DNA of 63,767 nucleotides, the filler included, from Folioceros fuciformis (lineage: Eukaryota): assembly GCA_049999805.1 (NCBI GenBank). It is 5 parts of 4 records of this genome, joined end to end, with 100 filler letters (N's around TTAATTAATTAA, not from the genome) between each part and the next. Parts side by side here need not be neighbours in the genome. Positions count along the whole stretch, not along the records: positions 18,193 to 38,716 come from JBNGIO010005682.1; 4 more parts are not named here. One strand, written 5' to 3'. The notes beneath the pieces were generated by a model that had not been told where the DNA came from, searched no databases, and was given only the letters and a program-made list of their open reading frames with translations. Below are positions 8,079 to 37,874 of the stretch, in pieces (within the stretch, counting starts at the first letter, position 1; each line of letters starts with the position of its first letter). Both the position numbers and the translations under genes were made by a program.

Positions 8079-8215
8079 CCTACACAAAATTCACTAGCAT
8101 AAATGCATTTTAAAACTCTAAGTAGCACTCTATGCTAGACAATAGAAGTAGAGACAATCTTCTTCTACAATTAGCCATAGGACTACTAGATAAAAATGCA
8201 TGGGCTCTGATACCA

Positions 8216-10839: not shown

Positions 10840-10977
10840 TGTAAACGAAAAAATGTTTAGAAATCCCTTGCCCAAGTGCGAGACTTGGTGTTTTTTTTGC
10901 TTTTGGTAAGTTGGGTGTAAAATCGGCTTAGGTTGGGAATAGGCCGAGTTATTTATACTCAAGACTTCCTTGGGTCT
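10840..10977 (+). mobile_element. Terminal fragment of a third copy of the large TG-ended element (continues at 15072-15220)
   Basis: Aligns to 31777-31920. Its continuation at 15072-15220 aligns to 31916-32040 (GGTGCTACTTG; AAGCCTATA-AAGGA-polyC). Confidence 0.75.
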
Positions 10978-11809
10978 TGTGGAGTAAACTATTGTGTCCG
11001 AGGACACCGCGAGGCCCACACAAACCCTTTATGTCATTGTAGCCATGGGATTCGCTCCCAAGGGAATGATTTGTGCCAAGTAACATAGGTTTCTTCTACT
11101 CCTGACTCTTACCTAGGTTAGGCCCTATCCACTATCGTTTCTACTACCTACTACTCCCTACCGCTACCCCTCAGTTAGCCTAGCTACCGCGGACCCTACT
11201 CTTCGACTCCGGGTCCTACCCTATGACCGCGGTCACTGGTTTCACGACTGGTAGTGGTCTCCACGATCGTGGTGGGTCCCACTCAAAACCCTAACTAATA
11301 TTTACTGGCACAGGCACCACTGCAGGTTTCCACCACGGATTTTTGCCCCAGGGGCTTCTAGATTCACTGATCTGGTCTTATTGGATGCTCCTCACACATG
11401 CAAATGCTAATCCTTCAGAAACAAGACCCTGCGGATCAGCCACACTCTCTCACACACCCATGCATTACTCTCCACACATGCAAAGCACACAAGAACTCTG
11501 GTGTACACTTATTCCTCACAAGTCTGTCTCCAAGTGTCGTCAATCTCCCAACAAAGTCCACAAATCTCCAACGATTCCTTAGCAATCCTTCACAACACCT
11601 CACAAGCTTCCACAATATTCAATAGTCCTTCGCACGCATCCGGAAATCTCTTCAAAATCCTTCAGAACTCACATCCCAGCTTCAGCACTCTTTCTCAATC
11701 ATCTAGCAATTTCTTAGCAATTCTCTTTAGTCTCAACAATCTTGCCGCAATCTCAGCAATCCTCCAAGGTCCTCCTCAATCTCTGAGCTCACTCTTCCGC
11801 AGCCAACGG

Positions 11810-12295
11810 TTCAGGGGATAAGGGAAGGAGAAACTCTCCCTCCACTGCGTGCAACGGGCGGATTCGTCCCCCTCTGCTCGGCTTACGGCTAGTCAGTCTC
11901 CCTCTCACACACTCACTCCTTCACCCTTCTCCTCCTTACCCACTCGCTCTTCACTCGCCCCTTCTCGCTCACTTCAACTCCTTATCTTCTCACACACACT
12001 CTTCTTCACACACGCTTTTCCCCACCGGATTTGAAATGCAGCCAAAGGGTCAGGAAATAAGGGAAGGAGGCGCTCCCCTTCCACCCCGCGCAACTGGCGG
12101 ATTCGTCCCCCTCTTCTCGGCTATGGACCACAGACAGCCGTTCAAGGAATAAGGGAAGGAGAAGTTCTCCCTCCACTCCGCGCATCGGACTGATTCGTCC
12201 CCCTCACCACTCACCGTAGAACACAACTAGCAATGCAGGGAATAAGGGAAGGTGACCTTCCACTCAGCAGGCTCTTGCTGATTCGTCCCCCTTAC
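11810..12295. repeat. Four dispersed ~60-nt modules in copy A
   Basis: Consensus GGAATAAGGGAAGGAG-N4/5-CTCCC(T)TCCAC...GGCGGATTCGTCCCCCT at ~11813, 12053, 12147 and 12238. Confidence 0.8.
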
Positions 12296-12695
12296 CACCA
12301 ATTGTGGAGCAAAAATCTCTCGACCACCCTTATGAGCGTCGCGCACATGCTGCCCACCTAGACATCCCCAATCCAGCTAAGGACAACGCGAGGACCTTGA
12401 CTGAGAAAAGTTGCCAACTTTTGCTGATTAGTGAGGCATCAACATGCCTCTTTGTACACATGCCAGGCGGAATCGTAGCCGCCATTAAGTTCAATCTCAA
12501 GCAGTCATGTGCTCTTAATTATGAGCGGCATCAGGTCAAAGAAAGCATCTTCACTAAATGAAAAGATCTTACTAAATGTTATTATAAGATGCAATGAATT
12601 CTGGCCTATCCTATCGCCGCGCTCGCCTCCTATCTGGCCTTCACGTAACCCTCCCCTTGCCGCCAAATCCCTGGGCCCTCCTTCCTCTTTGCTAG

Positions 12696-14900
12696 TTAGG
12701 CAGATCCTCCCATAAAACCTCTATCTCGCTCTCGCTGCCGCCTGTTGCTGAGGACCATCATGGGTTCTTGCTCCACCCATGCCTGCGCTTCTTCCTCTGT
12801 TAGTTCCTCCAAGACTGCCTCCGAATAACGAGGCAATCCCCACACCCGGAAGTAGTGGGAGAAGCATCCCCTGCGAGTCCTTAGTTGTAGGCAGTACGCC
12901 CTTGTCCCTCCTATTTCCACACGCACATGGACAGTCAGGTTAAGTACACGGTCCCCATTCTCATACAAGCCAAGAACATAAGTTTCCTCATCCAGATGTT
13001 GTAATACAATCTGGCCCCCTACTGCAGATGAGGTGCTTACCCCCTCTTCCCGTGGGCTACCCCAAACTGCCTGTCTTCTGCTCTCCAGGGTACTGGGCTG
13101 CCGCTATTCCCTGCCTCGTCCTCCTTGTGCGAATCACCATCCTAGCTCTTCTGGTTGCGGGCTCCACGACTGCTGCTGCTTCCTCTACCCTGGTAGGGCT
13201 GTCCTCTACTGGCGTGGCCTCCTTCTGATCGGTAGCGGCTTCGGCTACCTTGGTCGCGGACCTGCTACTCCGTTTGACTCTCCCTTTCCCTTTCACCCGG
13301 CTCCGGGCCTCATCGCGTTCCCATTTATAACGGTCTGCGAGTTTCTGAACCTTCTCCACTGCGCCCGCCTCCTGCTCCTGTGCTCTCAACAGCTCATGTT
13401 GCATTTCCTGGTTGGCTTCGTGGACCTCCTTGACTTGAATCAGGAGCAGTTCTTGCTAATCTTTCATGGCCTGCATTTCCTCCCGAGCTCGGTGTCCTTC
13501 CTCCTGCGCCTGTTCCTTTGCTGCACTCAAGGCTTGTCGAGCTTCCTCCACTTGCTCCCGCCTTGCTTCTGCCTTAGACAGCTTGGCCTGCACCTCCTCT
13601 TCTTGCTGCCCTTGCATGCTCCGCCAAGTGAGCGCCCGTGCAGCCTGGTCTAGCATATCTGCCTACGCCTGGACCATGGCCGCTGTCAGGCCTAGTAAAT
13701 CCACCTATTGGGGCGTGCCTCCAGTAGCCATTCCTTTGTCCAGGATCCCCCTTCCCAGCAGTGCGCGTACTCTGGCCAAATCCTCCTCCTGCAAATTCGC
13801 CACCAAGGGGGTGGCCCTGAAGATCTCTTCCCACCCCGAAAAGAGTTCTTCCCCCGGGGTCAGCCCTAACTTCTCTGCCACCTCAGCCGGTTTTGCCCCC
13901 TTCGCTGGCGCTGATTCCTTGGGTTCGGTTGAGGGGGTGCTCGGTTGCCTGTCCCCTGTTTTTCGGGCAGACTCCTGCAGCGTCGAATCTACTGCTGCCC
14001 TGGTAACGTGCGCACTGACCTTCCTCCTCTTCGCGGGGGTCTTTTGTCCGACCCCTGCCTTTCGCTTCCTGCTGACTGTCACCTCCTCCTCTGGACTCCC
14101 CGTTGCTCTAGACTCCTAGCTGCTGGACTCGACCTCCTCCTTGGGCTCCTCCGGCTTCTACTTGACCTCCCGGACAGGCTTCCACATGTGCAGGGAAGCC
14201 ACCACTTCTAACTCTGGCATATTATTAGTATAGGAATACAGATGGACCAGGAAGGGTGAGATCACAAACGGATAGGGGGTCGGAGAAGTCAAATTCTGCC
14301 TCTTCTAGATAATTTTCCCCCAGTCGATCCTGCTCCCCTTGATAACTTCGTGTAGGAACAGCAGCATGTGGTTCGACAGGTAGTCTTGCTTCCTGGGCTG
14401 CAAAAGCATAGGAGCCACCTAGCCAGACCCATGAGCTGGGCGGTCGCCATCTCTTGCGCCAGCCAGTTGTTGGCCTCCCTTCCGATTCCGGATTTGAACA
14501 GTGCCGCTACCGCCACCGTGGTGCTGTGCTTCCTCAGGGACTCAATCACAAGTCCCCCGGCTTCCTCTTGACTCTGCCCATACACTGTCTAATCAACTCT
14601 ACATCTAAGTCTTGGGGTCTCTCCCTGGTCCCTTCTCCTTTGGTCTTGTTCTGCAATCGGTGAGTGCACTCTTGCACTAGAGCGGGGGTCACATGGTTCC
14701 ACCTCTTGGCCATGAACCCGAGGCCTAGCTCCTCTACCAGCCCTCCGACTCTGGCCTTCCAATGGTCCATGTTGGGCCAGAGGGCTACCTCCACCTAGGG
14801 CAACGGCTCAAGCGCGGCATCCCTGAACGACTCTACCTGCGCCACGTATGTGGTTACTCCCTCCATCGGTCTCCGCTCCACAGTCGTCCTGGGTGCCGCC
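12696..14900 (-). pseudogene. Decayed long ORF of unknown function in copy A
   Basis: Fragments VALWPNMDHWKAR, RIDWGK, ISPFLVHLY, RKRK/KRRK, a long heptad region and YENGDRVLNLTVHV join into one frame across stops and frameshifts. Homologous to 32075-34697. Confidence 0.7.
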
Positions 14901-15231
14901 GCCTCTCTTGATACTAGCACAATACCTCTTGAGACCCAAGGAGATCTTGAGCATAATACCCCGGCCGATTCCCAACCTAAGCCGCTTTCGCACCCATCTT
15001 ACCAAAAAAAACAAAAAAAACACCAAGTCTCGCCCTTGGTCAGGGGAATTCTAAACATTTTTCTGTTCACAGGTCCCGAGGTTTTGAGTTTAGGAGTAGG
15101 GTTGACCAATAATTGGTCCGTGGACCAAGTCAAGAGGGGTGCTACTTGTTCCTTGGCCCTCGGTCCTTGAGCAAGTCCTAAAAAGCCTATACAAGGAGCC
15201 CCCCCCCCCCATAGCTTTATGGCTAGATATT

Positions 15232-18092
15232 TGTTGAGTTATCGAGCTCTATATAAGCTAAACTCATGTGGTGTTAGTTATCCCGGTTGGGTTCATACTA
15301 AACTAGTTCTAGTTATTAATGAACTTAAGATAGTGTAGATTATTTCATATTGAACTTGGAAGTTGTGTAGCCCTAAATGTACTACTTAAATGGACACCTC
15401 GGACCTCCATAGTAAGACAGCGGTGATGTGTATTGTTTTTGGTTGTGACCACCAATACCACCCTCTCTTCTCTCCTCTCCTCTCCTACACTTGCACATAG
15501 ACTGGAATCGATCCTATTGACATGGACATGGTATCAGAGCTTGAGAGCCAGATTGCCAAGCATAGCCCAGAGCCGAAGAGCCAGGTGGCTACACATGAGG
15601 GCGGTGCAAGATCGGCGTAGGAGGTGCTGCAAGAGGCAGCAAGAGTGCACACCAAGAGCTGGAGTAGCTACGAGGAGTTGGAGCAGCTTGAAGGGAGATC
15701 GGCAGCAAGCGTCCCGGCAGCTAACTCTCATATTGGTGTGTGCAGGAAGTGAGAAGAAGGGCAACAAGGCCCTATCAGCTTACTGGACGGGATGTTGATC
15801 CCCGAAGCTGTGGAAGGGCTGACAGGTGTAGGCAACAGCTGCAGTAGCCTCAGTAGCTGCAAGAAAGTGTGCTAACCCTAGCTTGGCAGCAGGGAAGGAA
15901 TTGACAAGAAATCTCACGGGAGCTTTGTTGGCAGATCGTCAAGTGTCTGTAAGGACAATCTGATTCATGCAAGGCAGCGTGATTTCGCACCAAATTGCTC
16001 TTAGGAAGAAGAGACTTAAGGTCTTGTGAGTAAAACTCCACTCAGAAGCAATCTCTTTCTTGCAGACATTTATCAGGTGTGAGTACTCAAGAAGGATTGA
16101 GTGTCAACCTTGAGTGGTGGCAAGAATGGCCAGTAACAATATTAACCAGATCGTGCAAGAGAAGCTGGACAAAAACAACTTCCATGCCTGGAAGTTTCGT
16201 TTTACAAACTTTCTTATGGGAAAGGGTTATTGGGACTACATTGAGGGGGAGCATGAAAAACCCCCTGTAGTACTTGAATAGAATGCAACAGCGGAGCAGA
16301 TTAAGGCGCTGAAGGATTGGAATCAAGGATCTCGGAAGGTCATGTATTGGCTGTCAATCAGCATTCATGACACCATGATTGGGCACATATAGGATGCAGA
16401 GTCACCCAAAGAAGCATGGGATGAGTTGGTCAAACTCTATGAGACCAACATGAAGGCAAGGAAACTACAGTTGAAGAATGACTTCAACACAATTATGAAG
16501 AAGAACTTATCAATCAATGAGTATGCGTTAAAGATCAAAGAGATAGTGGAATCCCTTGCGTCCATTGGTGTCAGTGTGGAAGATGACGACAAGGTCGAAG
16601 TTTGCTTACACGGGTTAACACCTGCCTATAAGCAGTTCAAGACTTCCATACAGACTCGAGAAAACATTCCCAATTTCTCAGACCTGATTTCTATGTTGAT
16701 CATAGAGGAGAAAAACCTAGGCGAGGAATCATCCTCTAAGCCTAAGGAAAACTCTGAGCAAGCCTTCTACTCTGGCAGAGGCAGAGGTAGAGCCCAAGGT
16801 GGTAGAGGGCAAAGAGGTGGTAGAGGTAGAAATTCCTACCAAAATCAGCAATAGAATCAGGAGTCCCAGTACAAGAGTACATGTGGAAGAGGAGAAAATT
16901 CTCGAGGCTAGGGGAGTCAAAGAGGACATGGAAATCAACAACAAAATGATGCAAATGCAGACAATAGTGGTTGCTGGACTTGTGGTAGATTAGACCACTT
17001 CAAAAGAGATTGTCCACAGAGAAATCAAGCAACAAGAGGCAGCAGAACAATTATGCCTCAAGCAGCAGTCAGAATGACTCGGACAACTTGTTTGTCATGC
17101 AGCATATGCTTAACTCTGTGTCTGCTAATGGATCTACCAATGGTGAGATTGTGTGGTATGTGGACTCAGGAGCTTCAAACCACATGACATCCCATGGGGA
17201 GTGGTTCAAAGAAATGCAGGTGCTTGACAAACCTGGATATGTGAAAACTGGAGATGACACAACACATGCAATTGTGCATACAAGAACTGTACCTTTGAAG
17301 ATGCAGGATGGCAAAGTGAAGTGCTTGATAGATGTTCTTCACGTACCCAACATCACGAAGAACTTGGTGTTAGTTGGGTAGATGGTTGAGCAAGGACTGC
17401 AGGTTAGGTTTACACCTACAGGACTCTTTGTTGAAGAGTGCAAGAAAGGCGCTCACCTGATTGCTCAAGGGCAGAAGGTTAGACAGATGTTCACCTTGAA
17501 CGTGGAGGTTCCTAAGCTGAAGTCAGCCATGTTTGCGAAGGTTAGGGTACAAAGATAGTGGCAGACTTAGAGATGTGGCACAAACGCATTGGACATGTAA
17601 ATGTGCAGAAGTTGAAGTCCATGCAACATCAGAAGGTTGTCACAGGCATACCCAACCTTACAGAAACTGGACTGCAAGGTGTATTATGTGAAGCATGTCA
17701 ACTTGGGAAACAGCCTAGGAATGCGTTCCCCCATGACAAACATGTCAGCAGATATGTGTTGGATGTTGTGCATTCAGATGTATGGGGTCCTACACAGACT
17801 GCATCAATCGGAGGATGCAAGTACTATGTGACCTTCATTGACGACCACACAAGGAAGGTGTGGGTCTATTTCATGAAAGAAAAAAGTGAAGTGATCACTC
17901 ATTTTCATACTTTCAAGGCGATGGTTGAGAAGCAGACAAGTAGGCACATCAAATGCCTAAGATCTGATGGAGGGGAAGAGTACTTCTCTAGAGAGTTCAG
18001 CAAATTCTTATCAGAACAGGGCATTCAACGGTAGTACTCATGTCATTATACGCCACAACAAAATGGAGTTGCAGAGCGCAAGAACAGGCACA
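15232..18092 (+). mobile_element. Ty1/Copia element, 5' part (truncated by scaffold end)
   Basis: LTR ends ...GACA at 15528; the TGTTGAG start at 15232 is tentative. Perfect PBS TGGTATCAGAGC at 15529-15540. Gag-PR-INT follows. Confidence 0.85.
16126..18092 (+). pseudogene. Copia gag-protease-integrase with multiple stops
   Basis: EKLDKNNFHAWKFR, CWTCGRLDHFKRDC, WYVDSGASNH, WHKRIGH, HSDVWGP, LRSDGGEEY, QQNGVAERKNRH. Confidence 0.9.
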
Positions 18093-18192: not shown

Positions 18193-18340
18193 TGACCCTC
18201 CATCCACAGCAGCAAGGAACCCCATCGCTCCTTCGTGGGAACGAAACCCAATGTCTCAACGACAATGGGATAAGTGTGGCCACTAAAGGTGGAACCCGTC
18301 GGCAATCAGTGGCCGGGGTTTTGCCTCCACAACACTTCCA
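18193..18340 (+). repeat. Interspersed repeat with inverted copies at ~37390-37513 and ~38615-38716
   Basis: GTGGGAACGAAACCCAATGTCTCAACGACA-TGGGATAAGTGTG recurs as its reverse complement twice. Confidence 0.8.
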
Positions 18341-21004: not shown

Positions 21005-21849
21005 AAGCCCAAGCTTTTTATTTCTCTGTTTGCTTGTTATACCCTCCACATAGGTGAAATCCGTATCAAAGCCCATTGCCCTCTCTCACTGGGTGACAGA
21101 ACATCCCACATATTCTTCGTGCTGTCAAATACCATTCCAGGTCCATCTCTTTTGAATGCATTAGCGTTTTCAAAGCTGACAAATGTCAGTAACGCCCTTC
21201 TAGGCTCACCCTTTTTACTTACACAATAAAAAGGATGTCTATCATCTAAAACCACCCGCCTACTTCTACGCCCTTCTTCCAAAATTTGATCCACTATAAA
21301 CTCCTCACTCCTTTGCCACTGATTTGCATGTCTTTGCAACAAATGCTTAGGCATCATGTTGTTCCAAAAACAACAAAGTTTGTGAGCCCTTGATCCAAAT
21401 TGCACTGCATCCAACTTTATAGGCTCTCCTAGATCATACTTAATCTCCTCAAAATCTTGTCTCAGCAACACCCTCTTATAGATGTGAGAGTCCACATTCT
21501 CAACTAAATACCCACATTTTGTCTTTTGACACCCTTGTATCAAATTGAGAATCCTTACCAACTCATAAAATAATACATATCTATAATCCATTAACCCTTT
21601 TCCTCTTCTTGTCATTGAGTGTCCCTGACACTCCCAACCCACCACTACAAGATCAATTTCTTCCACCATATGAAATTGCACCAATCCAATAAGCCTAACA
21701 TCTTGTGACCAAGTGGAAAATGCCTTCTTTACAGCCTCAATCTTCAACTACATTGGATACTTTTTACACAGCTTAAACAATTTGGCCTTTGCAATTGTCT
21801 GACAAACTTCATCTAGATCACAATAAATGTAACGTTTAATTGCATATCC
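21005..21849 (-). pseudogene. Dnmt3-like C5 cytosine methyltransferase, copy 2, C-terminal part (motifs II-X)
   Basis: GYAIKRYIYCDLDE; QDVRLIG; IDLVVVGWECQGHS; YLVENV; RAHKLCCFWNN. After a frameshift in a GA run: ERAMGFDTDFT and QRNKKLG. Confidence 0.88.
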
Positions 21850-24800
21850 TGTTGAGATATTCGGCCCTCCTTACATAGCGTAAAATAATGTCAAACAGCT
21901 AACCTAAAATAAGTAGTTAGGGTTAGAAGGTAGTTACACGAATAACCGTCGTGTGCCACCTGCGCACGCACGCACGAACCTACAAGAACTATGTGCGCTA
22001 TTTTTCTTTAATGCAACATTGTATTTTGTGTACACCGCATTATGGTATTAGAGCCTTGACTAGGCGTTGATGAAATCCCTGTGCCCTCTATTGAGGCGCA
22101 GCCTTTTCTGTCACTTTGACAGGAAGCACATGGATAGCACCAACGCCCTGCAAAGTGGTTAGTCAATCAAGAACGACTTACGCTATGAGCAGCCTTCCCC
22201 TTAATCAGTGGGTTGGCTGGATGTTGTTCCTTTGTCAATTCATGGACCCGGAATTAGCCTTCATGATCGATCAAGCAGTGAGTGCTGTGATGTGGCGCAA
22301 CGAGCAGCAGTGGAAGAAGAGGGCGGTTGACATCCACAAGCGTGTCAAGATTGCCCATCAACATTCTTGATTTTCCTGTGCAGTGCGGTCTGGAGGTTAG
22401 CAGGTGTACGCTGCAACTACTAGCCAGTGCAAGGAAGGTGGAAGGGTTGAGGATGGCAAGTCAAAGTGTAGAGCCTGCAAGTAAAGGAACTGGGGAGGTT
22501 GGCGTACCTTGTTCCTAGGATGGCACAACGCCATCGTTTTGGTAGGCGCAATCAGAGGAGCATGCCCCAGTTCATCCCTCCTTATGAAGTGACCAATATT
22601 TTGGTGACCTGAGACAGGCGCACTCAACCTTGGAGGATCCTGAATCTTGCTACAGCAAATCCAAGCATCCATCACTATCGTAGGTCACTGCCGTACAGTC
22701 GATGAGATCCTGTTGCACAGCGTCGTTCAGAGTCAATGTTGAGAAGAGGTCAGGTTGAGTCGCTTGCTGTGTCTGTTCAAAATCTATCCCAACGCCTCGA
22801 TAACATTAACAGCAAAGCATTGTGTTGCACCCAGCATATCCTGTCAACCAATCAAGTTGCTAGACTAGAATCCTACCTACGGCAGTTGGATGTGAAGTTG
22901 TTTGTCTTGCCAAGGCCAAGCCCCACATCCTGGAACATACAAAGATCACTCAGACCTTGGCTTCTAATGAAAACCGTACAGTCTGCATTCACTGTCAACA
23001 GAAACAGGTTGAGTCATACAATGCTGGTAGCTGTGACAGATGAGCAAGAGTCATTCTTACAGAACACCTGCCTAGCTTCGTCATTTAGCACAGGAAGTCG
23101 GTGTTATAGACCTTGATGAGTCTTCAGATAGTGAGTCAATTAGGAGTACAGATGTAGATTCCACCCGTGCATCTGTGAACACAGACCTATCAGAAAGAGA
23201 TATAGTTTGGTTTAGTCGTACCAACATGGATGAGGAGGAGAAGGCCAGAGAAGACATGCAGAATGCATTGCAGTCACTTACCAGCGATGTGTTTAAGGAG
23301 AAAGACCGTATGGTGATTGGTGCTGAATATGACATCTGGGTAATGCGCATGCAAGGTGCGCTTGAAGAAAAGAATCTCTGGCATGTTGTGAGCGGAGAGA
23401 CAGAGAAGCCTGATGTTAATTCTGCCGACCTGCCAGTATGGACTTTGGCTGATATCCATGCAAGGAACCTGATTCGTTCAGGTTTGGGTCCTGAAATGAT
23501 TAAATAGGCCTCAGATGGGCCTGGAGACTCAGCAAAGGAGATGTGGGATCGTTTAGCAATGATGTTTGCCTCCCACGATATGGCTGCGTCTATGTCTACA
23601 TCAGCAAGGTACCACAACCTTAGAATGACAGAAGGTGAGAATGTGGAGCACTACATCGGGAGATTCAGAATCGCACGAGCTAAGCTATGTTCCACAGGTG
23701 TAAAGACTACTGACTACGAAGCTAGTTGCAGGCTGTTGAGTTCATTGCCACCCAGCTTTGGACCCTTTGTCACTGGTCAGCAGGCGATGGCAAAGGTGGA
23801 GGCCCGGTTGTCGAAAGCCTTAAAGATTGATGCAGAACCCTTGACATTTAACGGTGTCGTTGGGGCCATGCAACAAGAGGAAGCCACGCGGCTGTCCTCT
23901 AGATCTAGCAGATAGCAGACACAAGGTCAACAAGCCTTGTTTGCTGGACGGGGCAAACCGTATCAAAGAGGACGTGGAGGTTGGAACTCAAAAAAAGGCA
24001 GCAGACCTAGTTTCTAGTGCTTTTGGACAAGCTTTAGGAAGTAAAAAGAAGGCCGGAAATTGCCATTGGTGTGGCATATCAGGTCATTGGGCTCGAAATT
24101 GCCGGAAACGCAAAGTTGGTGAGCCCAAGAAGGAAGGTGCAGGCTCTCCAGAGGTGCACAATGTGCAAGCTGTTAAGAAGAAAAACCCACAAGTGATACT
24201 TACAATTTGCTTGACCACGGCTGGTACGCATACTTCAGCGTGTTTTGTTGACTCCGGAGCATCTACGCATATCTGTCACAGCAGGTCCTCGTTCAGTGAG
24301 TATGAGAAGTACAGGGACGTGCAGTCCATACTCTTAGGCGATGAGAGCTCACTACCCATAGTTGGGATGGGTACAGTGACCCTACACCTGCATCATGGCA
24401 AGACTCTAGTGCTGCACAACGTTCTTCACGTTCCTGCAGTCACGAAGAACCTGCTATCAGTAAGGAAGCTGACTTCAGACACCACTCTGAATGTGCTATT
24501 CAAGGGAGACAAGTGCATAATTGTGGATAGTGTGCATTCAGATGCCGTACTTGCAGAAGGGTTTCCAGTGAACGAGATATACCAGCTGAGCCTTGAAGGT
24601 AGTAGCTTGCCGATGCTGAATGTTGTTGGTATTCCTGCGAACCTCACACCTGGTGAGATAGCTATGCTTTGGCATCTGCGTTGCGGACATCCACATGGCG
24701 GAAAATTATCAGCAATGTCGAACAACTCATTGTATGCTGATGGGATACCTGGTCAAGTGGGGGACTTACCGCTCTGTGAGTAGTGCATCTATGGGAAACA

Positions 24801-27800
24801 TCATGAGGCTGCCTTTGACAAGACAGGTGCTCATCGTGACTCCACACCTCTGGAACTCGTGCATTCAGATATCTGTGGCCCGATTTCAGTACCTTCCATT
24901 GGTGGTGGGTCATATTTCCTCACTTTTATCGACGATTTCACTTGCTACTACACTTTGTACATACTGAAGTACAAGAGTGAAACCCTTCAGCACTTCAAAG
25001 ATTTCCTGCACATGGGTGAGCGGCAAACTGGCCATAGTTTGCGATGCCTCCGATCCGACAATGGTGGGGAGTACATCTCTGGCAAGTTTAAAGTGTATTG
25101 TCGGGATCTTGGCATCACGAGGCAGCTCATAGTCCCCTACACAGCTCAACTCAACGGCGTCGCAGAGAAGAAGAATCAGCTGTTGCAAGAAACTGCTCGG
25201 GCTTTGCTTAAGCAAGCTAGGCTTCCTAGGCGATATTGGGCTGAGGCCATGAACACTACTAACTACCTGCTCAGCAGGTTGCCTACTTGAGTGTTACCTG
25301 GTAAGACGCCATTTGAGGCGTGGTGGGGACGAAAACCACCAATCCAGCACCTTCGCATTTTTTGTGCTCCAGCATATGCGTTTGTTCCAAAGCCTAAAAG
25401 GACAACAAAGCTGCACGACAGGGCACACCAGTTAGTGTTCATAGGTTACACTGATGGCATCAAAGCTTATAAGCTTTCTGACCCTGAGGCATGCATTGTC
25501 AGTCATGCACGTAGTGTAGTTTTTGATAAACGACGAGTGATGCATCCCCCTACTACCTCCATTGACTCGGACAGAGGTGAAAATGTTCTACCTGAGATAG
25601 TTGAGGACCCCGACGAGGATGATCTAGTCGATGGGGCACCCATGCTGATGTAGATCAGTTTGAAGTTTCATATTTTGGTCAATCTGGCGAGGATGATGAT
25701 GGTCATGATGTTGAGACTGCAATCGAGGGTGATAGTATATCACCTGACACCTATACAGAAGGATTGGAAGCAGCAGAGCCCATAGAGGAGGTACCCATTG
25801 CTGATGTACCTACTTCACAAGTGAGAAGTACATACAATCTGCGTGAAAGAAACAGGCCGTGGAAGGAGCCTCCCCTCGAGATGGAAGACTGGAGGCCTAC
25901 TAGGGTTACTAGATTACAGAAGCAAAAGGGAGGCAAGTCGAATGCTGGTAGTGTCGTTACCTTGGAAGTGCCTGCAGTGGGGGCACCGGCACCAGTACCA
26001 GCACTTGCTGAGGTGGACAGTGAAGATGTAGTTTCAGCTGGGGATGCAACCCCGTCCACGTGGTTTGTTCAAGCCATGGTGGCATCCACCTCGGATTTTG
26101 CTGAACTAGCCTCTATGCAACAAGCATATTCAGGACCTGAGGCAAGATAGTGGAAGAAGGATGTAGAGGATGAGTATGCATCCGTAGTTAAAAATGGAAC
26201 CTGGACATTGGAGGAGTTGCCAAAGGGTAGAAAACCTATCTCATGTAAATGGGTCTTCAAGTGAAGGATGAAAGATGATGGCAGCATTAAACGTTACAAA
26301 GCCAGACTGGTAGCAAGAGGTTTTTCTCAGATTCCTGGCATAGACTTTTCTGACACGTTCACTCCAGTTGTCAAGTTTGCAACCCTTCAAATGATTCTTG
26401 CCATAGCTGCGCATATGGACCTGGATCTAGAGCAAATGGATGTGAAGACCGCTTTTCTACATGGTACTCTTGAAGAAGACATGTACATGGAGCAACCTGA
26501 GGGCTACGTAAAGCTAGGGACAGAGCATCTAGTCTGTAAGCTAAAGAAAACCTTGTATGGACTTAAACAAAGTCCTAGAGCTTGGAATCAGTGGATAGAT
26601 ACTTATCTTAAGAAGATGGGCTTCAAGCAGGGTGATGCTAACCCGGGGCTGTATGTTATGACTGAGGACAAGAGTTTCGTGATACTTCTGTTGTATGTAG
26701 ATGACCTAATCCTGGCTGCAACCACGAGCAAAGGGAGCTTAATGCAGAAGGTTAAATCACTCCTCAAAAAGGAATTCGAGATGACAAAGTTAGGGGAACT
26801 TACATGGTGCCTTGGAATAGACATTGCAAGAGATAGGAAGGCAAGGAGACTTTCCATTTCGCAACATAAGTATGTCAGAGACTACTTGAAGAAGTTTAAC
26901 CTCGAGAATGCGAATGGATGTGCCACTCTGTTGGCCACAAGGCTCAAAATAATGAAGAGCCTGGTTCCCATGATACCTGAAGAAGCTGAAGAGATGTCTA
27001 GGACACCATATCGGCATGTAGTAGGGACCCTAATCTATTTGTCAAATGTTACACGACCAGATATTGCCTTCCCTGTTAGCCTAGAGTCATAGTTCTTAGA
27101 AAACCCTCACCCTAAGCATTGGAGCCAAGTCAAAAGAACGTTCAGATACTTGAAATCCACTCCGACGCATGGCATTACATATGCTGGGATAGAGGAGGAG
27201 CTCTTAACTTTGGAGGGCTTCTGCGACTCAGACTGGGCGTATGACCTAGACAGCAGGAAGTCCCTATCAGCCTTTGTGTTCTTGTTGGCAGGTCCGGTCA
27301 CCTGGACAAGCAAGAAACAAGCAACTGTATCAACTTCGAGCACGGAAGCTGAATACAAAGCACTTATAGTAGCTGCAAAAGAGGCAATCTGGATCAGGCG
27401 GAACCTATCTAATGTTGGGATGAAGCAACCAAGCGCCACCGTTCTTCAATGTGATAATCAGGGCGCCATTGCGCTATCAAGAAACCTTGCTTTCCACTCT
27501 AAGGTGAAGCATATGGAAATACACCACCATTTCATAAGAGAAGTGGTGAGCAACGGTCAAATGACAATCCAGTATATTCCTACAGCTGAGAACCCTGCGG
27601 ATCTACTGACCAAAGCCCTGCCTAGAGAGCTGCACAACAAACATGCAAATAGGCTAGGCATAGCAGCCTGTGAGAAGTAACAACAGATAGTTCGCCTACA
27701 CGCCATCCATCGACAAACTGTAAGCTATGTAGAAGTTTCGACTAGTACCAGTTGAAGTTTTGTCATCAATTCCCACTCGCAGAAGGTAAAGCCTTGTCTT

Positions 27801-28369
27801 CTTGCAGATGAAGGAGGGTGGAGCCCAATTTGCGCCGTGGCAAACCAATGTGCAGCCATTCTGTGTACCGACTAGTAGCAACCGCCGTTGGTCCAAGCTC
27901 AGGTGCTGCGAAGTAGAGAAGAAGAGAGTAGCTTCTGCCTGAATCGTGTTGGAGAGTCTGACGGCTGAGGGTAAGAGTGGCGGCGGGCGATCATCGACAG
28001 TAGGCGCATTTTGGGCAGCTTCAAGCTCTGCAATTACAGTGTCAAGGATTGTGACAACCTAGGCTAGCGCCACAATCAAGGTCTTAAGCGGCCGCCGAAT
28101 CCAAAAAAAAAGAAAAGTGGAGCGTAAGAGCAGCATTAGAAGTATTAACAGTATAAGATAGGACCTCAAGTGGGGGTGTTGAGAAATTTGGCCCTCCTTA
28201 TATAGCGTAAAATAATGTCAAACAGCTAACCTAAAATAAGTAGTTAGGATTAGAAGGTAGTTACACGAATAACCGTCGTGTGTCACCCAGGCGCGCACGC
28301 ACGAACCTACAAGAACTATGTGCGCTATTTTTCTTTAATGCAACCTTGTATTTTTTGTACACCGCGTTA
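21850..28369 (+). mobile_element. Complete Ty1/Copia LTR retrotransposon inserted in DNMT copy 2
   Basis: 193-bp LTRs at 21850-22042 and 28177-28369 (about 12 mismatches; TG...TA ends). PBS TGGTATTAGAGC at 22043-22054. PPT AAGTGGGGG at 28168-28176. TSD TATCC/TAACC. Confidence 0.95.
23175..27680 (+). pseudogene. Copia gag-pol with stops and frameshifts
   Basis: FKEKDR, CHWCGISGHWARNC, FVDSGASTH, HSDICGP, SDNGGEY, YKARLVARGF, LYVDD, DSDWA, SSTEAEY, ADLLTK. Confidence 0.92.
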
Positions 28370-28374
28370 TAACC

Positions 28375-29399: not shown

Positions 29400-30236
29400 T
29401 CCACCTTCAGCCATCCAATGTAGCATCTAGATGGGCAAATGCTTGCATCATCTACAAGGGAAACATCCACGAACCACTCTTATTGCTACATTTTAGCTGT
29501 ACACTCAATGCATATTAACTACGTAAAAACCACATGAATCCATTTTCACCTTGTATTGCAATCAAACCGACCAACTTTGAGGAGGAAGGGGCATGTCCAC
29601 ACCCTCACACTTTGCTTCCAAAATGTCCTCAATCCTTTCAAATAAATGATGGTGACCTCCATCTTCCACCACAAAAAACCCATACACCCAAGAATCCATT
29701 GTTGGTTTCCTATGCTTATCTACATTGATTGTTCAAAAATGATACCCCCAAGCATTCAATCTGCAATATGTGTTCACTGTGAGTCATGGGCCATCCACAA
29801 TAGCTTTGATGTTAGCAAAATTTGGTCGATCAATCCACACACCACTACGCACACCATTTTGCAACCATGTCAGTAGGTCAAGATTGCTTAACTCCCCATT
29901 TTCCAATGTTTCCCTTAACAGAGTGATGGTATTAGTGTGGAGGAGAATGTGCCGATGAAGCCTCTAATGCTCTAGCCTTGTCAATTCCTTGACCTTAGCA
30001 TTCCCAATGGGACGCTCATTTACCATATCATGATAAACATTGCTTAATAAACTCCCATGATCTTGATTACGGGATGCCATGTACTTGCTTGCAAAGTACA
30101 AGGCATCCATTGGTAAATAACCAGTTGCCATGGATCCTTCAAAGCGTCCTTGATTACGTACATGGTTATGCAACACCACCATGTAATGCTCCATTGGATA
30201 CATCAACCTACAATGGGCTGTCCCCTGGGTCTCCAT
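29400..30236 (-). pseudogene. CACTA/En-Spm TnpD-type transposase fragment
   Basis: GTAHCRLMYPMEHYMVVLHNHVRNQGRFEGSMATGY resembles the TnpD motif GPV.YRWMYP.ER....LK..VRN...PEGS.AEGY. Downstream GYHF and KVKMDSCGFYVVN fit the TnpD C-terminal region. Confidence 0.75.
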
Positions 30237-32074
30237 TTCATGGGGGTGCGAGTGGTGGTAGAGTGGTGATTGAAGTGCGTGAGTGGTGATTGGAGTGTGG
30301 AGCGTTGGAGTGCATGAGTGGTGGTGGAGTGGTGATAGGAGTGTGGAGGTTGGGCGGTGGTAGGGCGTAGGTGTGTGTTACTTTGCTATGCCATCATGTG
30401 ATTGTCAGCTAGGGTTTCCACTCTTTGGGGAAAAGTTTGGATGAGGTGATGCATGGCAAGGACAAGTTCATTAGGAGTTGGGGTGTATGTTTGCGTTCAC
30501 GAGTGGAGGGTAGTAGAGTGGGCTCATTGTACATAAGTAGGTATAGGCACATAGCACCTGTAAGTACGTAGATAAGTAGAGGTACACAACTTTCATACGT
30601 ATGTAGGTTGGTATAGGTATGGAGCGGGGCCAGAAGGAGCAGATTAAGGCCCATGGGTATAGCGAGAGTGGTGCATCCACTATGTTGGGAGCTATTGTTG
30701 GGGTTAGGGCTTGGCACCAACGGTTGTTAAGGTTTGGCATTGACAATTTGGTTCTCCAAGTGCGAGGGGCATGGAGCTTGGGCATGGCTAGTTCTAGACC
30801 ATTAGGAATTTTCTAGTCCAAGGTTACTCATATCCCCAACATTTGAGAGAAATTGAAAGACATACAATTGCGCCTCCTACTTGGAACTCCATCAGTTGTG
30901 AACAACAATGATGAGGAGGAAGAGGATGGCCTTGCAGCAAGTGCCAATAATGGCATTGACTTTGATGAAGAGCATGTCGTAAAGGAGTAGGTGCTAATGC
31001 GCTTTAGGGGATGGGGTGGAGGGAGGATGGGTTGGGGGAACTAGATGTGTGGTAAGGAGAAGTGCATACAAGATGATCTACCATGTTCTCCAAGATCGTG
31101 TGTGCAAAGTGATGAGACTATTCAACGCTCTCAAGTTGAGTTTCTACGACCTTGTCTCCAAGAATGACATAAGTGGCATGCAGTCAAGTCAACAAGGGTC
31201 GGTACGCAGCGGCACCAACCACCTATGATAACTATGACAAAATAAAAACCACACCCTAGTGTAAAGTGACTACGAAGTGAATCAAGCCGCTAGCAATGGA
31301 AGGTCTTTTTAGGTGAAACATTCGGTTGGGCCCAAAGCAAGAAAATCCACACAAGATGCACCCACAACGCATGCCTACCATACTTGAGTAGGAAGAGGAA
31401 GCCGACATGCTAGAACCCACTACCCACAGTTGTGGCAAGCAGTGATAGCGGTCGTCGAAGACCGTTTGTGTGACAAGATTTTTTAGAGGATAGTCCTTTG
31501 CATTGAAGTGTAGATGAATACATGTGGACAATGCCCTTAATGTGTTCTTTCTATTTGCCATTAGGGCTTATTTGTACCTGTACTCTTTTTCCCAGTTTCC
31601 ATTGCACATGGGCATCATATCAATCATTCTAGGGTGTCTCGTTAAGGAACACACCCTGCTCCTAGCCACCATGGTCGTGCCTAGCTCATATTTTTTGATG
31701 GCCACTGTTATTTCAACCCTTAGTTTTTGGAAATGTCTCCAAATCGTCCAATTGGTACCCAAGTTTCACGACCCTTTGTAGATGGAAAAATGTTAAAAAA
31801 CCCCCTCACCAAGTGTAAGACTTGGTTTTATTATTTATTATTTTTTTGATAGGACGGATGCGAAAGCGGCTGAAGTTGGGGATGGGAGGGGGTATATACG
31901 CACAAGACCTCCTTGGGTCTTGAAGTTTTGAGATAGATCAATAACTAGGCCATGGATCAGGTTGGGTAGGTGCTACTTGGGTCTTGATGTTCAGATAAAC
32001 TCTAGGAAGCCTATATAAGGACCCCCCCCCCTACATTTATAGAATAGGGAGTAACCCGCGGGGGAGGGAAGATT

Positions 32075-34697
32075 GTGGACTTAGGCGGAAAAAAGGGACT
32101 TTGTGACTCAGTAACGGTAGGGGAAGATGAGTTGCCATCGTGGAAGACGGAACCGGTTGTGGAATCCTGGCATGGTGATGGAGCTGAAGCATTGCGGACG
32201 AATAGGAACCCTAAGGCGGGACCCAAGGGACTTGGAGTATTTTCGAAGTGGAGCGCAACCATGGCGGGAGCGGCATCGAGGAGCGAACGTGGTGGACATG
32301 ACACAAGGTGCAAGCAAGTGAACGGGGCGCAGGCAGAGCCTGAGCGCGGGACTTGAAGAGGAGCGGAGCACACGGGTACTAGGAGAGGCGGCGGCGCCAG
32401 GACAATAGTGGAGCAGAGTCTGATGGCGGGAGTGATTGCAGACTCGGCATCGGTGGCAACATCCAGGGATGCAGCGCTAGAGCAGGTGCCTCAGGTGGAG
32501 GTAGCCCTCTGGCCCAACATGGGCCATTGGAAGGCCAGAGCCGGAGGGCTGGTGGAGGAGCTAGGCCTTGGGTTCATGGCCAAGAGGTGGAACCATGTGA
32601 CTCCCGCTCTGGTATAGGAGTACGCACACCGGCTGCGAAACAAGATCAAAGGGGAAAGGACCAGGGAAAGACCCCCGGACTGGGACGTCGAGCTGGTCAG
32701 GACGGTATATGGGCGGGGCCAGGAGGAAGTTGGGGGACTCATAATCGAGTCCCTAAGGAAGTGCAGCACCACAGCAACCGCAGCAGTGCTGTTCAAAACT
32801 GGAATCGGAAGGGAGGCTAATGGATGGCTGGCGTGGGAGATGGCAACTGCCCAGCTCATGGGCCTGGCTAGGTGGCTTTTGTGTTTTTTGCAGAATAGGA
32901 AGCAAGACTACCTATCGGACCAAATGTTGCTGGTCCTGCACAAGGTGGTCAAGGGGAACAGGATCGATTGGGGGAAAATTATCTTCGATTGACTGAACAA
33001 GTAGAGACAGAATCTAGCTTCACCAACACCCCGTCCGTCTCTGATCTCCCCCTTCCTCGTTCATTTGTATTGCCATGCTAATAGTCTACCAGAAATAGAG
33101 GTAGTGGCTTCTCTGCACATGTGGAAGCCTATTTGGGAGGTCAAGTCGAAGCCAAAGGAACCCAAGAAGGAGGCAGAGTCCAGCAGTTGGGAGTTGGGAG
33201 CAACAGGGAGTTCAGAAGAGGAGGTGACTGCCAGCTGGAAGAGGAAGGCAGAGGCCGGGCGGAAGACCCTTGCGAAAGCAGGAAGATCAGCGGGCGTACC
33301 ACTAGGGTGGTAGGGGACCCAACGCTGCAAGGTCCTACCTGAAAAGTAAGCAACGAACAACTGGGCACCTCCTCAGCCGAACCCAAGGAATCACCACCAA
33401 CAGAGGAACCGAAAGCGGCTAAGGTGGCAAGGAAATTAGGGCTGACCTCGGGGGAAGAACACTTCTCGCGGTGGGAGGAGCTTTTCAGGGCCACTCCTTT
33501 GGTGGCGAGATTGCAAGAGGAGGATCTGGCCAGGGTGCGCACATTGCTGGGAAGAGGGATCCTGGACAGAGGAATGGCTATTGGAGGCGCACCCCAACAG
33601 GTGGATTTACCAGGCCTAACAGCGGCCATGGTTCGGGCACAGGCGGACATGTTGGACCAAGCTGCACGGGCGCTGACTTGGCTGAGCATGCAGGGGTAGA
33701 AAGAGGAGGAGGTGCAGGCCAAGCTAACTAAAGCAGAAGCAAGGCGGAGGCAACTAGAGGAGGCTCAGCAAGCCCTGAGTGAAGCAAAGGAACAGGCACA
33801 GGAGGAAATATGCCGGGCTCGGGAAGAAATGCAAGCAATGAAGGATCAGTAGGAGCTGCTTCTGACCCAAGTCAAGGAGGTCCATGAGGCTAACCAGGAA
33901 ATGCAACAGGAATTGTTGAGGGCACAGGAGCAAGAGGCGGTTGCAGTGGAGAAGGTCCAGAAGCTTGCGGACCGGTATAAACGGGAACGGGATGAGGCCT
34001 AGAGCCGGGTGAAAGGGAAGGGGAAGGCTAGACGGAGCAGCCGGTCCGCGACCAAGGAAACCGAAGCCGCTACCAGTCAGAGGGAACCCATGCCAGTAGG
34101 GGACAGCCCTACCAGGGTAGAGGAAGCAACGATGGTCATGTAGCCCGCAACCGGAAGAGCGGGGATGGCAACTCGCACCAGGAGGCTAGGGCTGACAGCA
34201 GCAGCGGCCGGAGGGGAAAAAGATTTCCCAGTACCCCTGGAGAGCAAAAGAAAGGTAGTTCGAGGTAGCTCACGGGAGGAGGGGGTAAGCACCTCATCTA
34301 CAGTAGGAGGCCAGATTGTATTACAGCATCTGGATGAGGAAACTTATGTTCCTAGCCTTTATGTGAATGGGGACCGTGTGCTTAACCTGACTGTCCATGT
34401 GCATGTGGAAATAGGAGGGACAAGGGCTTATTGCCTACAACTGAGGATGCGCGGGGGGTGTTTCTCCCACTGCTTCCGGGTGTGGGGACTGCCCCCTTAT
34501 TATTCGGAGGTAATCCTGGAGGAACAGACAGAGGAGGAAGCGCAAGCATGGGTGGAGCAAGAACCCGTGATGGTTCTCAGCAACAGGCGACCAAGTGGTG
34601 GAGGAAGGACCTTTCGGCGGGCCCCGCCCATGCCTTAGCAAGAGAAGTCAGGCGACAGCGGGAGCGAGGTAGAGGTTTTATGGGAGGACTTGCCTGA
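32075..34697 (+). pseudogene. Decayed ~850-codon ORF in copy B
   Basis: CTATATAAGG TATA box at 32011. Successive ORF pieces (32075, 32408, 32786, 33065, 33424, 34165) join through single stops and one frameshift. Includes IDWGKIIFD, ISPFLVHLY, a basic NLS-like patch, a coiled coil and a C-terminal globular segment. Confidence 0.72.
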
Positions 34698-35094
34698 CCA
34701 GCGACAAGGAAGGAGAGTGCGGGGATTTTGCGGTCAGGGGAGGGGTACGCCGAGACTGGATAGGAGGCGAGCGTGGCAATAGGATAGGCCAGAATTCATT
34801 GCATCTTAGAGTTATATTTAGTTAAGATCTAGTGAAGATACTTTCTTGGACTTGATGCTGCTCGTAATTAAGAGCGCCTGATTGCTGGAAACTAGACTTC
34901 ATGGCGGCTACGATCCCGCCTGGTGAGTGTGTACAAAGAGGCATGTTGGTGCCTTGCTAATCAGCAAACAATCGGTGACTCGTTCTAGGCAAGGTCCCCG
35001 CGCTATCCATGACTAGACAAGAGAGGTCTAGGTGGGCAGTGCATGCGCGACGCGCCTGAGGGGAAGCCAAGAGTTTTTGCTCCACAATGAGCGG

Positions 35095-35690
35095 TGAGGG
35101 AGACAAATCCGTAGAACCTTTGCTGAGTGGAAGGTCACCTTCCCTTATCCCCCAAACTGTTTGTTGTGATCCATAGTGTGGAGAAAGGGGAACAAATCCG
35201 CCAGCTGTGCGGAGTAGAAGGGGAGACCCTCCTTCCCTGAATGGCTGCCTGTGGATTGTAGCCAAGGTGAGGGGAACGAATCTGCCAGTGCGCAAAGTGG
35301 AAGGGGATCGCCTCCTTCCCTTATTCCCTGATCCTTTGGTTGCGTTTAAAATCTGCTGGTGAGAAGTGTGTAAGAAGTGATGAGGCGTTGAAGAGTGAGT
35401 GTGTAAAAAGGAGAAGGTTGAAGGAGTGAGTGTGTGAGAGGAGAACTAACTGTGGTCCATAGAGAGAGGACGAATCAGCTGGCGGAGTGGAAGGAGAACT
35501 TCTCTTTCCCTTATTCCCTGAACCGTTGGCTACGTTCTAAGTCTGGTGTCAAAGTGAGTGTATGAGAAGAAGAAGAAGAGAAGGAGTGAGAGAAGACTGA
35601 TTGTGGTCTGTAGCTGAGGAGAGGGGGACGAATCCGCCAGCTGCGTGGAGTGGAAGGAGAATGTCTCTTTCCCTTATTCCCTGAACCATT
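35095..35690. repeat. Five ~60-nt modules in copy B (reverse complement of those at 11810-12295)
   Basis: GGGGACGAATCCGCCAG...GTGGAAGGAGA...TTCCCTTATTCCCTG recurs at ~35098, 35187, 35270, 35467 and 35623. Confidence 0.75.
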
Positions 35691-37389
35691 GGCTGCACTT
35701 CGAATCTAGTGAGGAAGAGTGAGCTGAGAGACTAAGGAGGACCCTAGAAGATTGTTAAGGTTGCTGGAGAATTGAAGAAAATTACTGAGAAGTTGCTGGA
35801 TGATTGAGGAAGAGTGCTGAAGTTTGGATGTGATTCCTGGAGAATTCCTAAGGGATTTCGAAGTGTTTGTGAGTGGCTGTTGAAGATTGTTGAAGCTTGT
35901 AAGGAGTTGTGAAGGATTGTTGAGGATTCGCTGGAGATTTGTGGAAGTTGCTGGGAGATTAAAGATACTTGGAGAAAGGCCTGTGAGGAATAAGTGTACA
36001 CCACAGTTCTGGTGTGTTTTACATGTGTGGAGAGTGATGCATGGGTGTGTGAGAGTGTGTGGCTGATATGAGAGAACTTGTCCCCCAAGGATTAGCCTAT
36101 GCCTGTGTGAGGAGCATCCAATAAGCCAGATTTGTGAATCTGGAAGCCCTTGGAGCAGAAACCCGTGATGGAACCCGCAGCGGCGCATGCGCCGGGAAAA
36201 TATTAGTAAGGGTTTCAGGTGGGGCCCACCATGATCGTGGAACCCACTATCGGTCGTGGAAGCTACTAGTGGTCGCGGAGACCACGACCGCAGTCGTAGA
36301 GTAGGGACAAGAGTCGTAGAGTAGGGTCGCAGTAGCTAGACTAACTGAGGGGTAGTGGAAGGGCGTAGTCGGTAGAAGAACTGGTAGTAGGTAAGGCCTA
36401 ACCTAGGTAAGAGCCAGTAGTAGAAGAAACCTGTGTTACTTAGCACAAATCATTCCCTTGGGATTGAATCCCATGGCTACAATGACATAGAGGGTTTGTG
36501 TGGGCTTCGCGGTGTCCTCGGACACAACATTTTACTCTAAACCCTTCAATGTCTATTGCTAGCAAAATACCCTTTGGGTATAATTAGACTTTTCATCGGA
36601 ATTGTTGTTTATATATCAACAAGTTCAAAACACATAGAGGTCATGGACCAAAACAAAGCTTTTCTTCTCAACCATAGCGATGTTCTCCGAGTGTTGCTTC
36701 TTGCAAGCCTATCACATGAATCTAGTATAAATTCGTTAGCCATTATGAGTAGAATTGTCAACAGAAGGCAAGAGAGCCTAAGCACAACATATCTCCTACA
36801 AAGAGCAATGCTACTTCAAAAAAAACTAAGCATCTCACCATTCTTGCACTTTGTTTGTCAACCACATAGATTCCTTTTGACAACTAGTTCTTAGATTCTA
36901 GGGCTATAAGTGACATTTACTTTCATAGAACAGCTCTCTTTGTTTTCACACCAAGGAAAACTTTTCTACACAATTTGATGGTCTTTTACATTCATTCTTT
37001 ATTGTTGTGTAAGGAATTGTGTTGACTAGCTCATTTGGAGGAGTAGGCTATTTTCTACCCTTTATACATGAATGGAATATATACTTAGATGTCTTCCTCC
37101 TACACCATAGAAGTGAAGGCTTGGATTGTTTCCAAGCATAGGTCCTTTATGCACAACGAGAGATTACTACTAAGATGTGGATATTGCAAATGGATAACGG
37201 TGGTAAGTACAATTATGGTTTTGCATCCTTGTGTGAAGGAGAAAGTATTTTGTACTAGTTCACCATGCTCTATACTCCAACTCACAATGCTCATTCTAAG
37301 CATCAAAACAAAAATTAAAGAATGTATATTAGCATCTCTTACTTTGCTAGACTCACCCATGGTTATGGGGTAGAGGTGTGGTGGCCAAA

Positions 37390-37874
37390 CCCTGGGCAAT
37401 TGTTTGCCAAGAAGTTCAACCTTTAGTATTCACACTTATCCCACTGTCATTGAGACATTGGGTTTCATTCCCATGAAGGAGCGATGAGGTTCCTCACTAC
37501 TATGGAGGGTCAAACTCAATCAACTCGATGACAGATTCAAGGGCTCCCCTCCAACACTGATCAAACGTGGGAAAATCTTCGCTATCCAGCAGCCGACTGC
37601 ACCTCTCTTGGTGCCCACAAACTCACTCCAGCCACTACAACGACACTAACCTCTCAGGTCTGTGACTTTCCTCACTCACTCACTCATTCCAACACCAACA
37701 ACACCTTCTACACTTTTCTATCAACTCCCGCACTCAACAAGAGTCACTCAACTAGAGTAACCTCAAAGAAGAACATGTCACTATCCATGATCCTACTAGA
37801 CACCATGCAAGCATGGTCGGCACTCACTCTAGTCCTGCAAGGAAACAAGAGGGACATATCATAGGGACGTGACA
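37390..37874. mobile_element. Probable LTR relic
   Basis: Contains the inverted copy of 18193-18340 and ends in GGGACGTGACA, a typical Gypsy LTR terminus. Confidence 0.4.

Follow-up and report, generated by a model that had tools for sequence, protein, structure and literature searches.

The superantigen gene of mouse mammary tumour virus (MMTV), known as the 'LTR ORF', is located in U3 of a retroviral long terminal repeat (LTR), an accessory protein thereby being encoded inside the LTR and twice per provirus. MMTV is an animal retrovirus with an LTR of 1.3 kb, and it alone turned up when the literature was searched for genes inside LTRs. To our knowledge, plant LTR retrotransposons carry accessory genes solely between the LTRs. 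The present analysis concerns a stretch of 63,767 nucleotides from Folioceros fuciformis (GenBank assembly GCA_049999805.1; five parts of four records joined by 100-letter N filler), referred to as the window, which includes two copies, A and B, of a unit of 4–5 kb with a decayed gene for a protein unrelated to that of MMTV. There is about an even chance that both copies are solo LTRs derived from a Copia-lineage family, the LTR of which is 4–5 kb long and contains a complete accessory gene.

LTRs of ~5 kb with abundant solo LTRs are recorded for LARD elements in the passages of a 2010 review that concern them (PMC2851119). Like the LARD/Sukkula-type solo LTRs (~5 kb) in that account, A and B are solitary, 4–5 kb in size, bounded by TG...CA and a 5-bp duplication, and devoid of gag and pol. 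Internal tandem repeats and abundant single units are further common features (PMC2851119). The same passages describe the LARD LTRs as non-coding (PMC2851119), whereas the unit contains a gene of ~740 codons on which selection acted. The LARDs are elements described from Triticeae, and relatives of the protein of the unit were found only in a liverwort. Revolver, also from Triticeae, is similar in being LTR-sized, in having one gene and ends homologous to LTR ends, and in its high copy number, as far as it is described in that review (PMC2851119). The Revolver element reported there is ~3 kb long, encodes a 139-aa protein from three exons and has 20-bp terminal inverted repeats (TIRs) (PMC2851119); in the unit, by contrast, ~740 codons form a single continuous coding region, TIRs are absent and the 5-bp duplications are clear.

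The accessory open reading frames (ORFs) of the plant mobile domain (PMD), Transposase_32 and ATHILA ORF-1 types likewise encode a non-gag-pol protein on an LTR element, which is conserved within a family. One section of the literature on PMD proteins assigns the PMD-A clades to Gypsy elements (PMC5418596), and a passage on Athila elements states that PF20167 matches the Athila 3′ aORF and is related to ATHILA ORF-1 (PMC11728184). ORFs of these types lie between the LTRs of angiosperm Ty3/Gypsy elements. The ORF of the unit lies instead inside an LTR-like unit with a Copia-type LTR relative, and its domain match is below the Pfam cut-off. The preliminary description of this DNA had placed the unit in the context of Tat/Athila-type elements; this framing does not hold, as the sole LTR relative seen is of the Copia type.

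The borders and non-coding parts of the two copies are as follows.
31777..36541, plus strand: copy A, 4765 bp, begins TGT and ends CTAAA.
31772..31776: left target-site duplication of copy A, CCCTT.
36542..36546: right target-site duplication of copy A, CCCTT.
10978..15071, minus strand: copy B, 4094 bp, begins TGTG and ends CACA.
10973–10977 (GGTCT) and 15072–15076 (GGTCC): target-site duplication of copy B, 4 of 5 positions agreeing.
31942..32382, plus strand: 441-bp segment of A that is missing from B in the A–B BLASTN alignment; includes a TATA-like box and leader.
35126..35728, plus strand: degenerate tandem repeats, 3–4 copies of units of ~160–190 bp.
36050..36541, plus strand: 3′ terminus, the best-conserved non-coding part, with the family consensus end CACA.

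A and B are 72–89% alike over their whole length, and similarity by BLASTN spans A 31785–36537 with an identity of 74.5–80.5%. Thus, the homology ends no more than 8 bp from both CCCTT duplications, and the perfect 5-bp duplication that had been claimed around A was found at the expected positions. Copy B, also proposed before, was re-found on the minus strand with the same coordinates, TG...CA ends and GGTCT/GGTCC duplication. Since B splits a stretch whose homologue in A is continuous, the borders of B do not depend on a choice of duplications by eye. In steps of 200 bp, identity between A and B varied from 0.63 to 0.89, the ORF not exceeding the non-coding 3′ part in this respect; conservation in the last 500 bp of the unit was 89%. 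There are no runs of N inside either copy. A and B are two decayed copies of a 4–5 kb mobile unit, and the TG...CA ends and 5-bp duplications show at least two insertions of it by an integrase-type reaction.

The family was further studied in contigs from three public runs (X1–X3) of one sample of the same organism, which were mapped on A. At a likeness of at least 80%, 1644 (X1), 1506 (X2) and 608 (X3) contig pieces were placed on A. Summed contig depth, which is not a measure of copy number, was 59–4197 within the unit as compared with 11.5–19.5 over most of the flanks (X1); it peaked over the final 250 bp and was at a minimum over the segment that B lacks. Past position 36537, 30 contigs of X1 and 21 of X2 continue with a consensus that begins CACA, after which agreement falls to 0.46–0.47. 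Hence the true family end is CA, with no single dominant sequence such as a primer-binding site (PBS) following it, and the AA of copy A is private decay, in keeping with the TG start and decayed CA end ascribed to A originally. The dissimilar continuations of the contigs fit many separate insertion sites. Upstream of 36427, the contig consensus of other copies is not present in the window and looks like a more diverged version of that region.

On 31277–37041, nearly all differences in run X3 are C>T across whole contigs (370 places), as would be expected if this library of the same sample had been converted with bisulfite or an enzyme. If so, X3 could reveal the methylation state of the A/B family.

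The origin of the left end of the unit was indicated by a truncated Copia element, designated C, within the 5′ LTR of which copy B is nested.
10840..10977, plus strand: first part of the C 5′ LTR, interrupted by B; begins TGTAAACG.
15077..15528, plus strand: second part of the C 5′ LTR, ends ...GGACA; the LTR is ~590 bp overall.
15529..15540, plus strand: PBS of C, TGGTATCAGAGC, of the tRNA-Met type, directly after the LTR end.
16174..18088, plus strand: decayed gag-protease-integrase region of C, with no reverse transcriptase (RT) after it.
31777..32035, plus strand: 5′ module of the unit in A, homologous to the first ~275 bp of the C LTR, with a hairpin and T-run at 31808–31835.

In C, Pfam recognised gag (16393–16851), a protease barrel (16989–17378) and integrase (17546–18031), the families matched being gag, Pol_BBD and rve. 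The sequence TGGTATCAGAGC is also found directly behind Copia LTR ends at four other sites in the window, twice exactly and twice with one mismatch. Positions 1–150 of the C LTR are 83% identical to B 1–152, and 71% identical to A 1–156. A TATA-like sequence, CCTATATAAGG (~32012–32022), together with a C-run that extends to ~32033, is the same in the C LTR and A at 23 of 25 positions. The alignment of C with A runs to about A 258, beyond which the C LTR and the unit are unrelated. Homology of the unit to an LTR flanking a PBS and gag is therefore limited to the first 150–260 bp, and the remaining ~4 kb has no match. The 5′ homology indicates that the left end of the unit is a genuine Copia-type LTR start, comprising the beginning of U3 and the TATA region.

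A hairpin with a 7-bp stem (ACCAAGT...ACTTGGT) followed by a T-run is present near the 5′ end of all three sequences (A, 31808–31835; B, 15011–15040, minus strand; C LTR, 10871–10900). The loop and the stem vary in places, and the hairpin may be a cis element of this group of LTRs.

The coding region of the unit and the parts of its product are listed below.
32423..34638, plus strand: decayed ORF of ~740 codons, from an ATG common to A and B to a common stop region; 8 in-frame stops and a frame change near 33311.
32513..33100, plus strand: N-terminal domain, homologous to Riccia sorocarpa proteins P0002–P0009; tentatively PMD- or Transposase_32-like.
33134..33292, plus strand: Lys/Arg-rich patch resembling a nuclear localisation signal, read from translations.
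33697..33996, plus strand: E/K/Q/A-rich stretch, a probable coiled coil, with weak matches to coiled-coil families and a dN/dS of 0.08.
34270..34602, plus strand: conserved C-terminal domain for which no relative was found.

An open ORF of ~850 codons, as had been proposed, is not present: the longest ATG-initiated ORF on the plus strand of A is 157 aa, and A carries 8 stops and a frameshift. The conceptual protein of A (32378–34635) contains 3 stops in 32378–33310, changes frame near 33311 and contains 5 stops in 33313–34635, while at least 8 stops are present in the gene of B, which is spread over three frames. From the common ATG at 32423 the length is ~740 codons, not 850. Both copies are now pseudogenes. 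However, the substitutions between them retain the pattern of a coding sequence. Differences at codon positions 1/2/3 were 47/46/87 and 60/47/91 in the two parts of the ORF (pooled 107/93/178, chi-square p = 7e-8), whereas they were evenly distributed in the 3′ non-coding control (p = 0.24–0.82). A dN/dS comparison of A and B, proposed in the preliminary description, gave 0.23 and 0.28 in frame for the two ORF parts (Nei-Gojobori), as compared with 0.60–1.17 in the other two frames and 0.51–0.71 in the 3′ non-coding control. Taken singly, the N-terminal domain gave 0.15, the coil 0.08 and the C-terminal domain 0.26. An excess of synonymous change is thus seen in one frame only, and the ORF was a real gene, which remained under purifying selection during the divergence of the lineages that gave rise to A and B. 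Hence much of the 20% divergence between A and B arose in copies with a protein under selection. As regards expression, one run guessed to be RNA gave 6 contigs on the unit, all less than 90% alike.

The motifs IDWGKIIFD and ISPFLVHLY and the basic patch, reported previously, are all present in the translations, as is the E/K/Q-rich stretch taken for a coiled coil. The closest relative of the protein is P0002 from the liverwort Riccia sorocarpa, found in a search among longer proteins (E = 4.8e-8). The two have an identity of 27% over 208 aa (BLASTP E = 5e-14), and the blocks ELGLGF, RWN, NWG/DWG and FLVHL in common. A profile search revealed seven further R. sorocarpa paralogues of 382–682 aa, encoded on several chromosome-sized contigs, in which the order of domain, charged linker and coiled coil is that of the unit protein. 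Relatives of the N-terminal domain are confined to this multi-copy Riccia family. When every frame of the window was scanned with a profile built only from the Riccia proteins, the top three matches were pieces of the A/B ORF (E = 4.9e-4, 0.009 and 0.06), followed by a match at E = 0.22; neither this profile nor tblastn with the ORF detected a further copy of A/B in the window.

The UniProt name of P0002 is 'Aminotransferase-like plant mobile domain-containing protein', that of P0003 and P0004 is 'Uncharacterized protein', and the names of the other five paralogues likewise begin with 'Uncharacterized protein'. The N-terminal part of A matched PF20167 (Transposase_32) at E = 0.0027 with 18.1 bits, below the Pfam cut-off of 45. 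PF10536 (plant mobile domain) was not reported in Pfam scans for A, B or the eight Riccia relatives, so that one of the nine family members (A, below threshold) has a PMD or Transposase_32 match. As none of the eight Riccia proteins reaches either match, the assignment of the N-terminal domain as PMD-like is tentative. The suggestion that a plant mobile domain might be recognised is thus borne out only distantly, via P0002, and not by a Pfam match above the cut-off.

Other searches with the protein yielded no further relatives. The N-terminal part had no match among proteins of 171–545 aa, and the coil and C-terminal part had no credible relative among 1.84 billion representatives, the single match there (E = 6e-4) being to a repetitive, unrelated protein. 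The ESM Atlas gave no usable match to two unbroken ORF pieces, and when PDB sequences were searched with the family profile, only coiled-coil matches (E ≥ 0.004) were obtained. Structures modelled with AlphaFold were of too low a quality to serve as search queries, both for the N-terminal part (11 rows, pLDDT 35.9) and for the C-terminal part (2 rows, pLDDT 39.2). A metagenome scan with a conserved 21-nt motif of the 3′ end returned one contig, which is not similar to the window and was dismissed as a chance match. In a scan of viral contigs, 96 stretches fitted the search pattern and none was confirmed by tblastn.

Features of an autonomous element were sought inside the unit. As noted before, A has neither an internal pair of LTRs nor long TIRs: no terminal direct or inverted repeats of at least 14 nt were found, and the only inverted terminal match in the unit is TGTG/CACA. 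Among the 123 frames scanned in the window, 26 stop-to-stop frames of at least 93 aa lie within A or B, and none of these matched a Pfam family of RT, integrase, gag or transposase, in agreement with the absence of such motifs claimed earlier. Seven PBS-like sites were found in the window, none of them inside or beside A or B. Two of these sites, at 9536 and 45805, each with one mismatch, have no adjoining LTR-like ends related to the unit, and the LTR at the PBS at 866 has only a CT-rich stretch in common with C. Rfam gave no matches in 31000–37200 at E ≤ 0.1, and there are no tRNA genes in the window.

TG...CA ends and a flanking duplication of 4–6 bp, the marks of a solo LTR, are both present in the unit. 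Given these together with a left end like that of a Copia LTR and the lack of terminal repeats, PBS and polypurine tract (PPT) of its own, a solo LTR is the simplest interpretation. Full elements of the order LTR-PBS-gag-pol-PPT-LTR would have inserted first, and recombination between their LTRs would then have left solitary units with the duplications intact. In the more specific form of this interpretation, for which the chance is somewhat less than even, each 4–5 kb LTR of the Copia-lineage family includes a promoter and the selected ~740-codon gene for a PMD-like, coiled-coil nuclear protein. As the ORF of A is preceded by the C-like TATA, the gene would most simply lie in R/U5, behind an LTR promoter. 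Located downstream of the TATA, the gene would be transcribable from every LTR, solitary ones included. Transcription might also start close to the 3′ end, which would place the gene in U3, in view of the lack of the TATA segment in B and the conservation of the last 500 bp. The protein most likely would act in trans, in the nucleus, as an oligomer and to the benefit of the element; interference with chromatin or silencing may be its most likely role, which is a guess by analogy with PMD proteins.

Several observations weigh against an LTR with a gene inside. Both copies in the window are solitary, and no pair of units, no PBS after a unit and no PPT before a unit was found there. A shared sequence behind the 3′ end is also missing from the contigs, where collapsed junctions could hide a minority of full elements. 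The 3′ end of the unit is unlike that of the C LTR, leaving a single LTR end with a known LTR relative. The Copia LTRs that end next to a PBS in the window, five in number, are all much shorter than the unit; three were measured, at about 160, about 190 and about 590 bp. The TATA box that had been claimed ahead of the ORF is present in A as CCTATATAAGG, but it sits in the 441-bp segment that is missing from B and, judging by the lower summed depth, from many other copies. Either this TATA promoter is not needed for spread or the copies without it are dead. Furthermore, according to a passage of the 2010 review, no LTR that encodes a gene had been identified until then (PMC2851119).

The solitary state of A and B, each with its own duplications, and the 30 and 21 contigs without a common sequence behind the 3′ end would also be consistent with a unit that moves by itself, i.e. 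an LTR-derived single-gene unit resembling Revolver, which multiplies alone with a Copia integrase acting in trans on TG...CA and is never part of an LTR pair. The succession of promoter-like start, leader, ORF and long trailer is the layout of a transcription unit, and Revolver provides a precedent, being described in the review passage as ~3 kb long with one gene and both ends homologous to 5-kb LARD LTRs (PMC2851119). However, solitary copies are predicted equally by solo LTRs, the unit lacks the short TIRs of Revolver, and no reverse-transcription mechanism is known that would copy a unit without terminal repeats, PBS and PPT and keep its promoter-side end. This explanation, the main alternative to a solo LTR, is considered rather unlikely; if correct, the unit would be the second element of the Revolver type, which is itself poorly understood, and would have arisen independently. 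The preliminary description had left a choice between an LTR-encoded accessory protein and a new non-autonomous element type, of which the former has been strengthened by the Copia LTR start and the evidence of selection, though it is unproven.

An internally deleted or non-autonomous LTR retrotransposon (LARD, TRIM or TR-GAG) with short LTRs of its own and an internal ORF would account for the lack of gag and pol, the size, and the resemblance of the first 260 bp to a short LTR with a TATA box. Yet these 260 bp do not recur at the 3′ end, end-to-end direct repeats of at least 14 nt are absent, and no PBS-like sequence follows the 5′ module. The unit thus shows none of the terminal direct repeats, PBS and PPT by which such elements are recognised, and this explanation is largely refuted, retaining only a slight probability. 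The 5-bp duplications and the single gene without retroelement domains could also suggest a DNA transposon that makes such duplications (Transib, Ginger or Maverick) or a segmentally duplicated host gene. A transposon of this kind would be expected to have TIRs and a DDE transposase; the unit has no TIR past TGTG/CACA and no transposase or integrase domain, and its 5′ end is homologous to a Copia LTR. A and B differ in their flanks, each with its own duplications, and the family is highly repeated. Hence an origin as a DNA transposon or a duplicated host gene is highly improbable.

If A and B are solo LTRs with a gene inside, every LTR of the family, including many solo LTRs, is a separate copy of the accessory gene of the element. 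Each element would then carry two copies of the gene, the gene would be directly behind the LTR promoter, and solo LTRs would retain it after the loss of gag-pol. A PMD-like accessory protein would also be placed in a Copia-related element and outside the angiosperms. This bears on the direction of exchange between retrotransposons and the PMD silencing proteins of their hosts (domestication by the host or capture by the elements), a question raised in a section of PMC5418596.

The window as a whole is plant-like DNA packed with Ty1/Copia sequences, Pfam matches to gag, Pol_BBD, rve, SH3_retrovirus and RVT_2 being found in five places. Besides C, two Copia elements with both LTRs are present.
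2057–8371, minus strand: young-looking Copia element, LTRs 2057–2214 and 8214–8371, 98% identical; exact PBS at 8204–8215.
21850–28370, plus strand: second Copia element, LTRs of ~194 bp at 21850–22043 and 28177–28370, 94% identical; PBS TGGTATTAGAGC at 22043.
The former has an open 805-aa gag-protease-integrase frame (4981–7395) and a 674-aa RT/RNase H frame (2956–4977) that spans a run of N, and gag-pol of the latter is split into many frames.

Between the truncated element C and the LTR of the next Copia element, a 236-aa open frame on the minus strand (21040–21747) matched C-5 cytosine DNA methylase (PF00145) at E = 7.5e-4. The match is below threshold (19.5 bits, cut-off 22) and covers profile positions 49–102 only, and no link of this frame with A or B was seen. 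The frame corresponds to the DNMT mentioned in the preliminary description. Direct duplications at 56259–56655/56756–57152 (96%) and 1–291/426–715 (88%) each straddle a run of N, and may be masking or assembly artefacts or short tandem duplications within Copia pol. A decayed DUF4218 (transposase-associated) frame (29967–30377, minus strand; E = 1.2e-9) is located 1.4 kb upstream of A; the site at which A inserted is probably within or next to the remnant of an older DNA transposon. An inverted match of 80% identity links 18193–18339, after the run of N that ends C, with 37369–37512, ~830 bp behind A, and represents another repeat family beside both loci.

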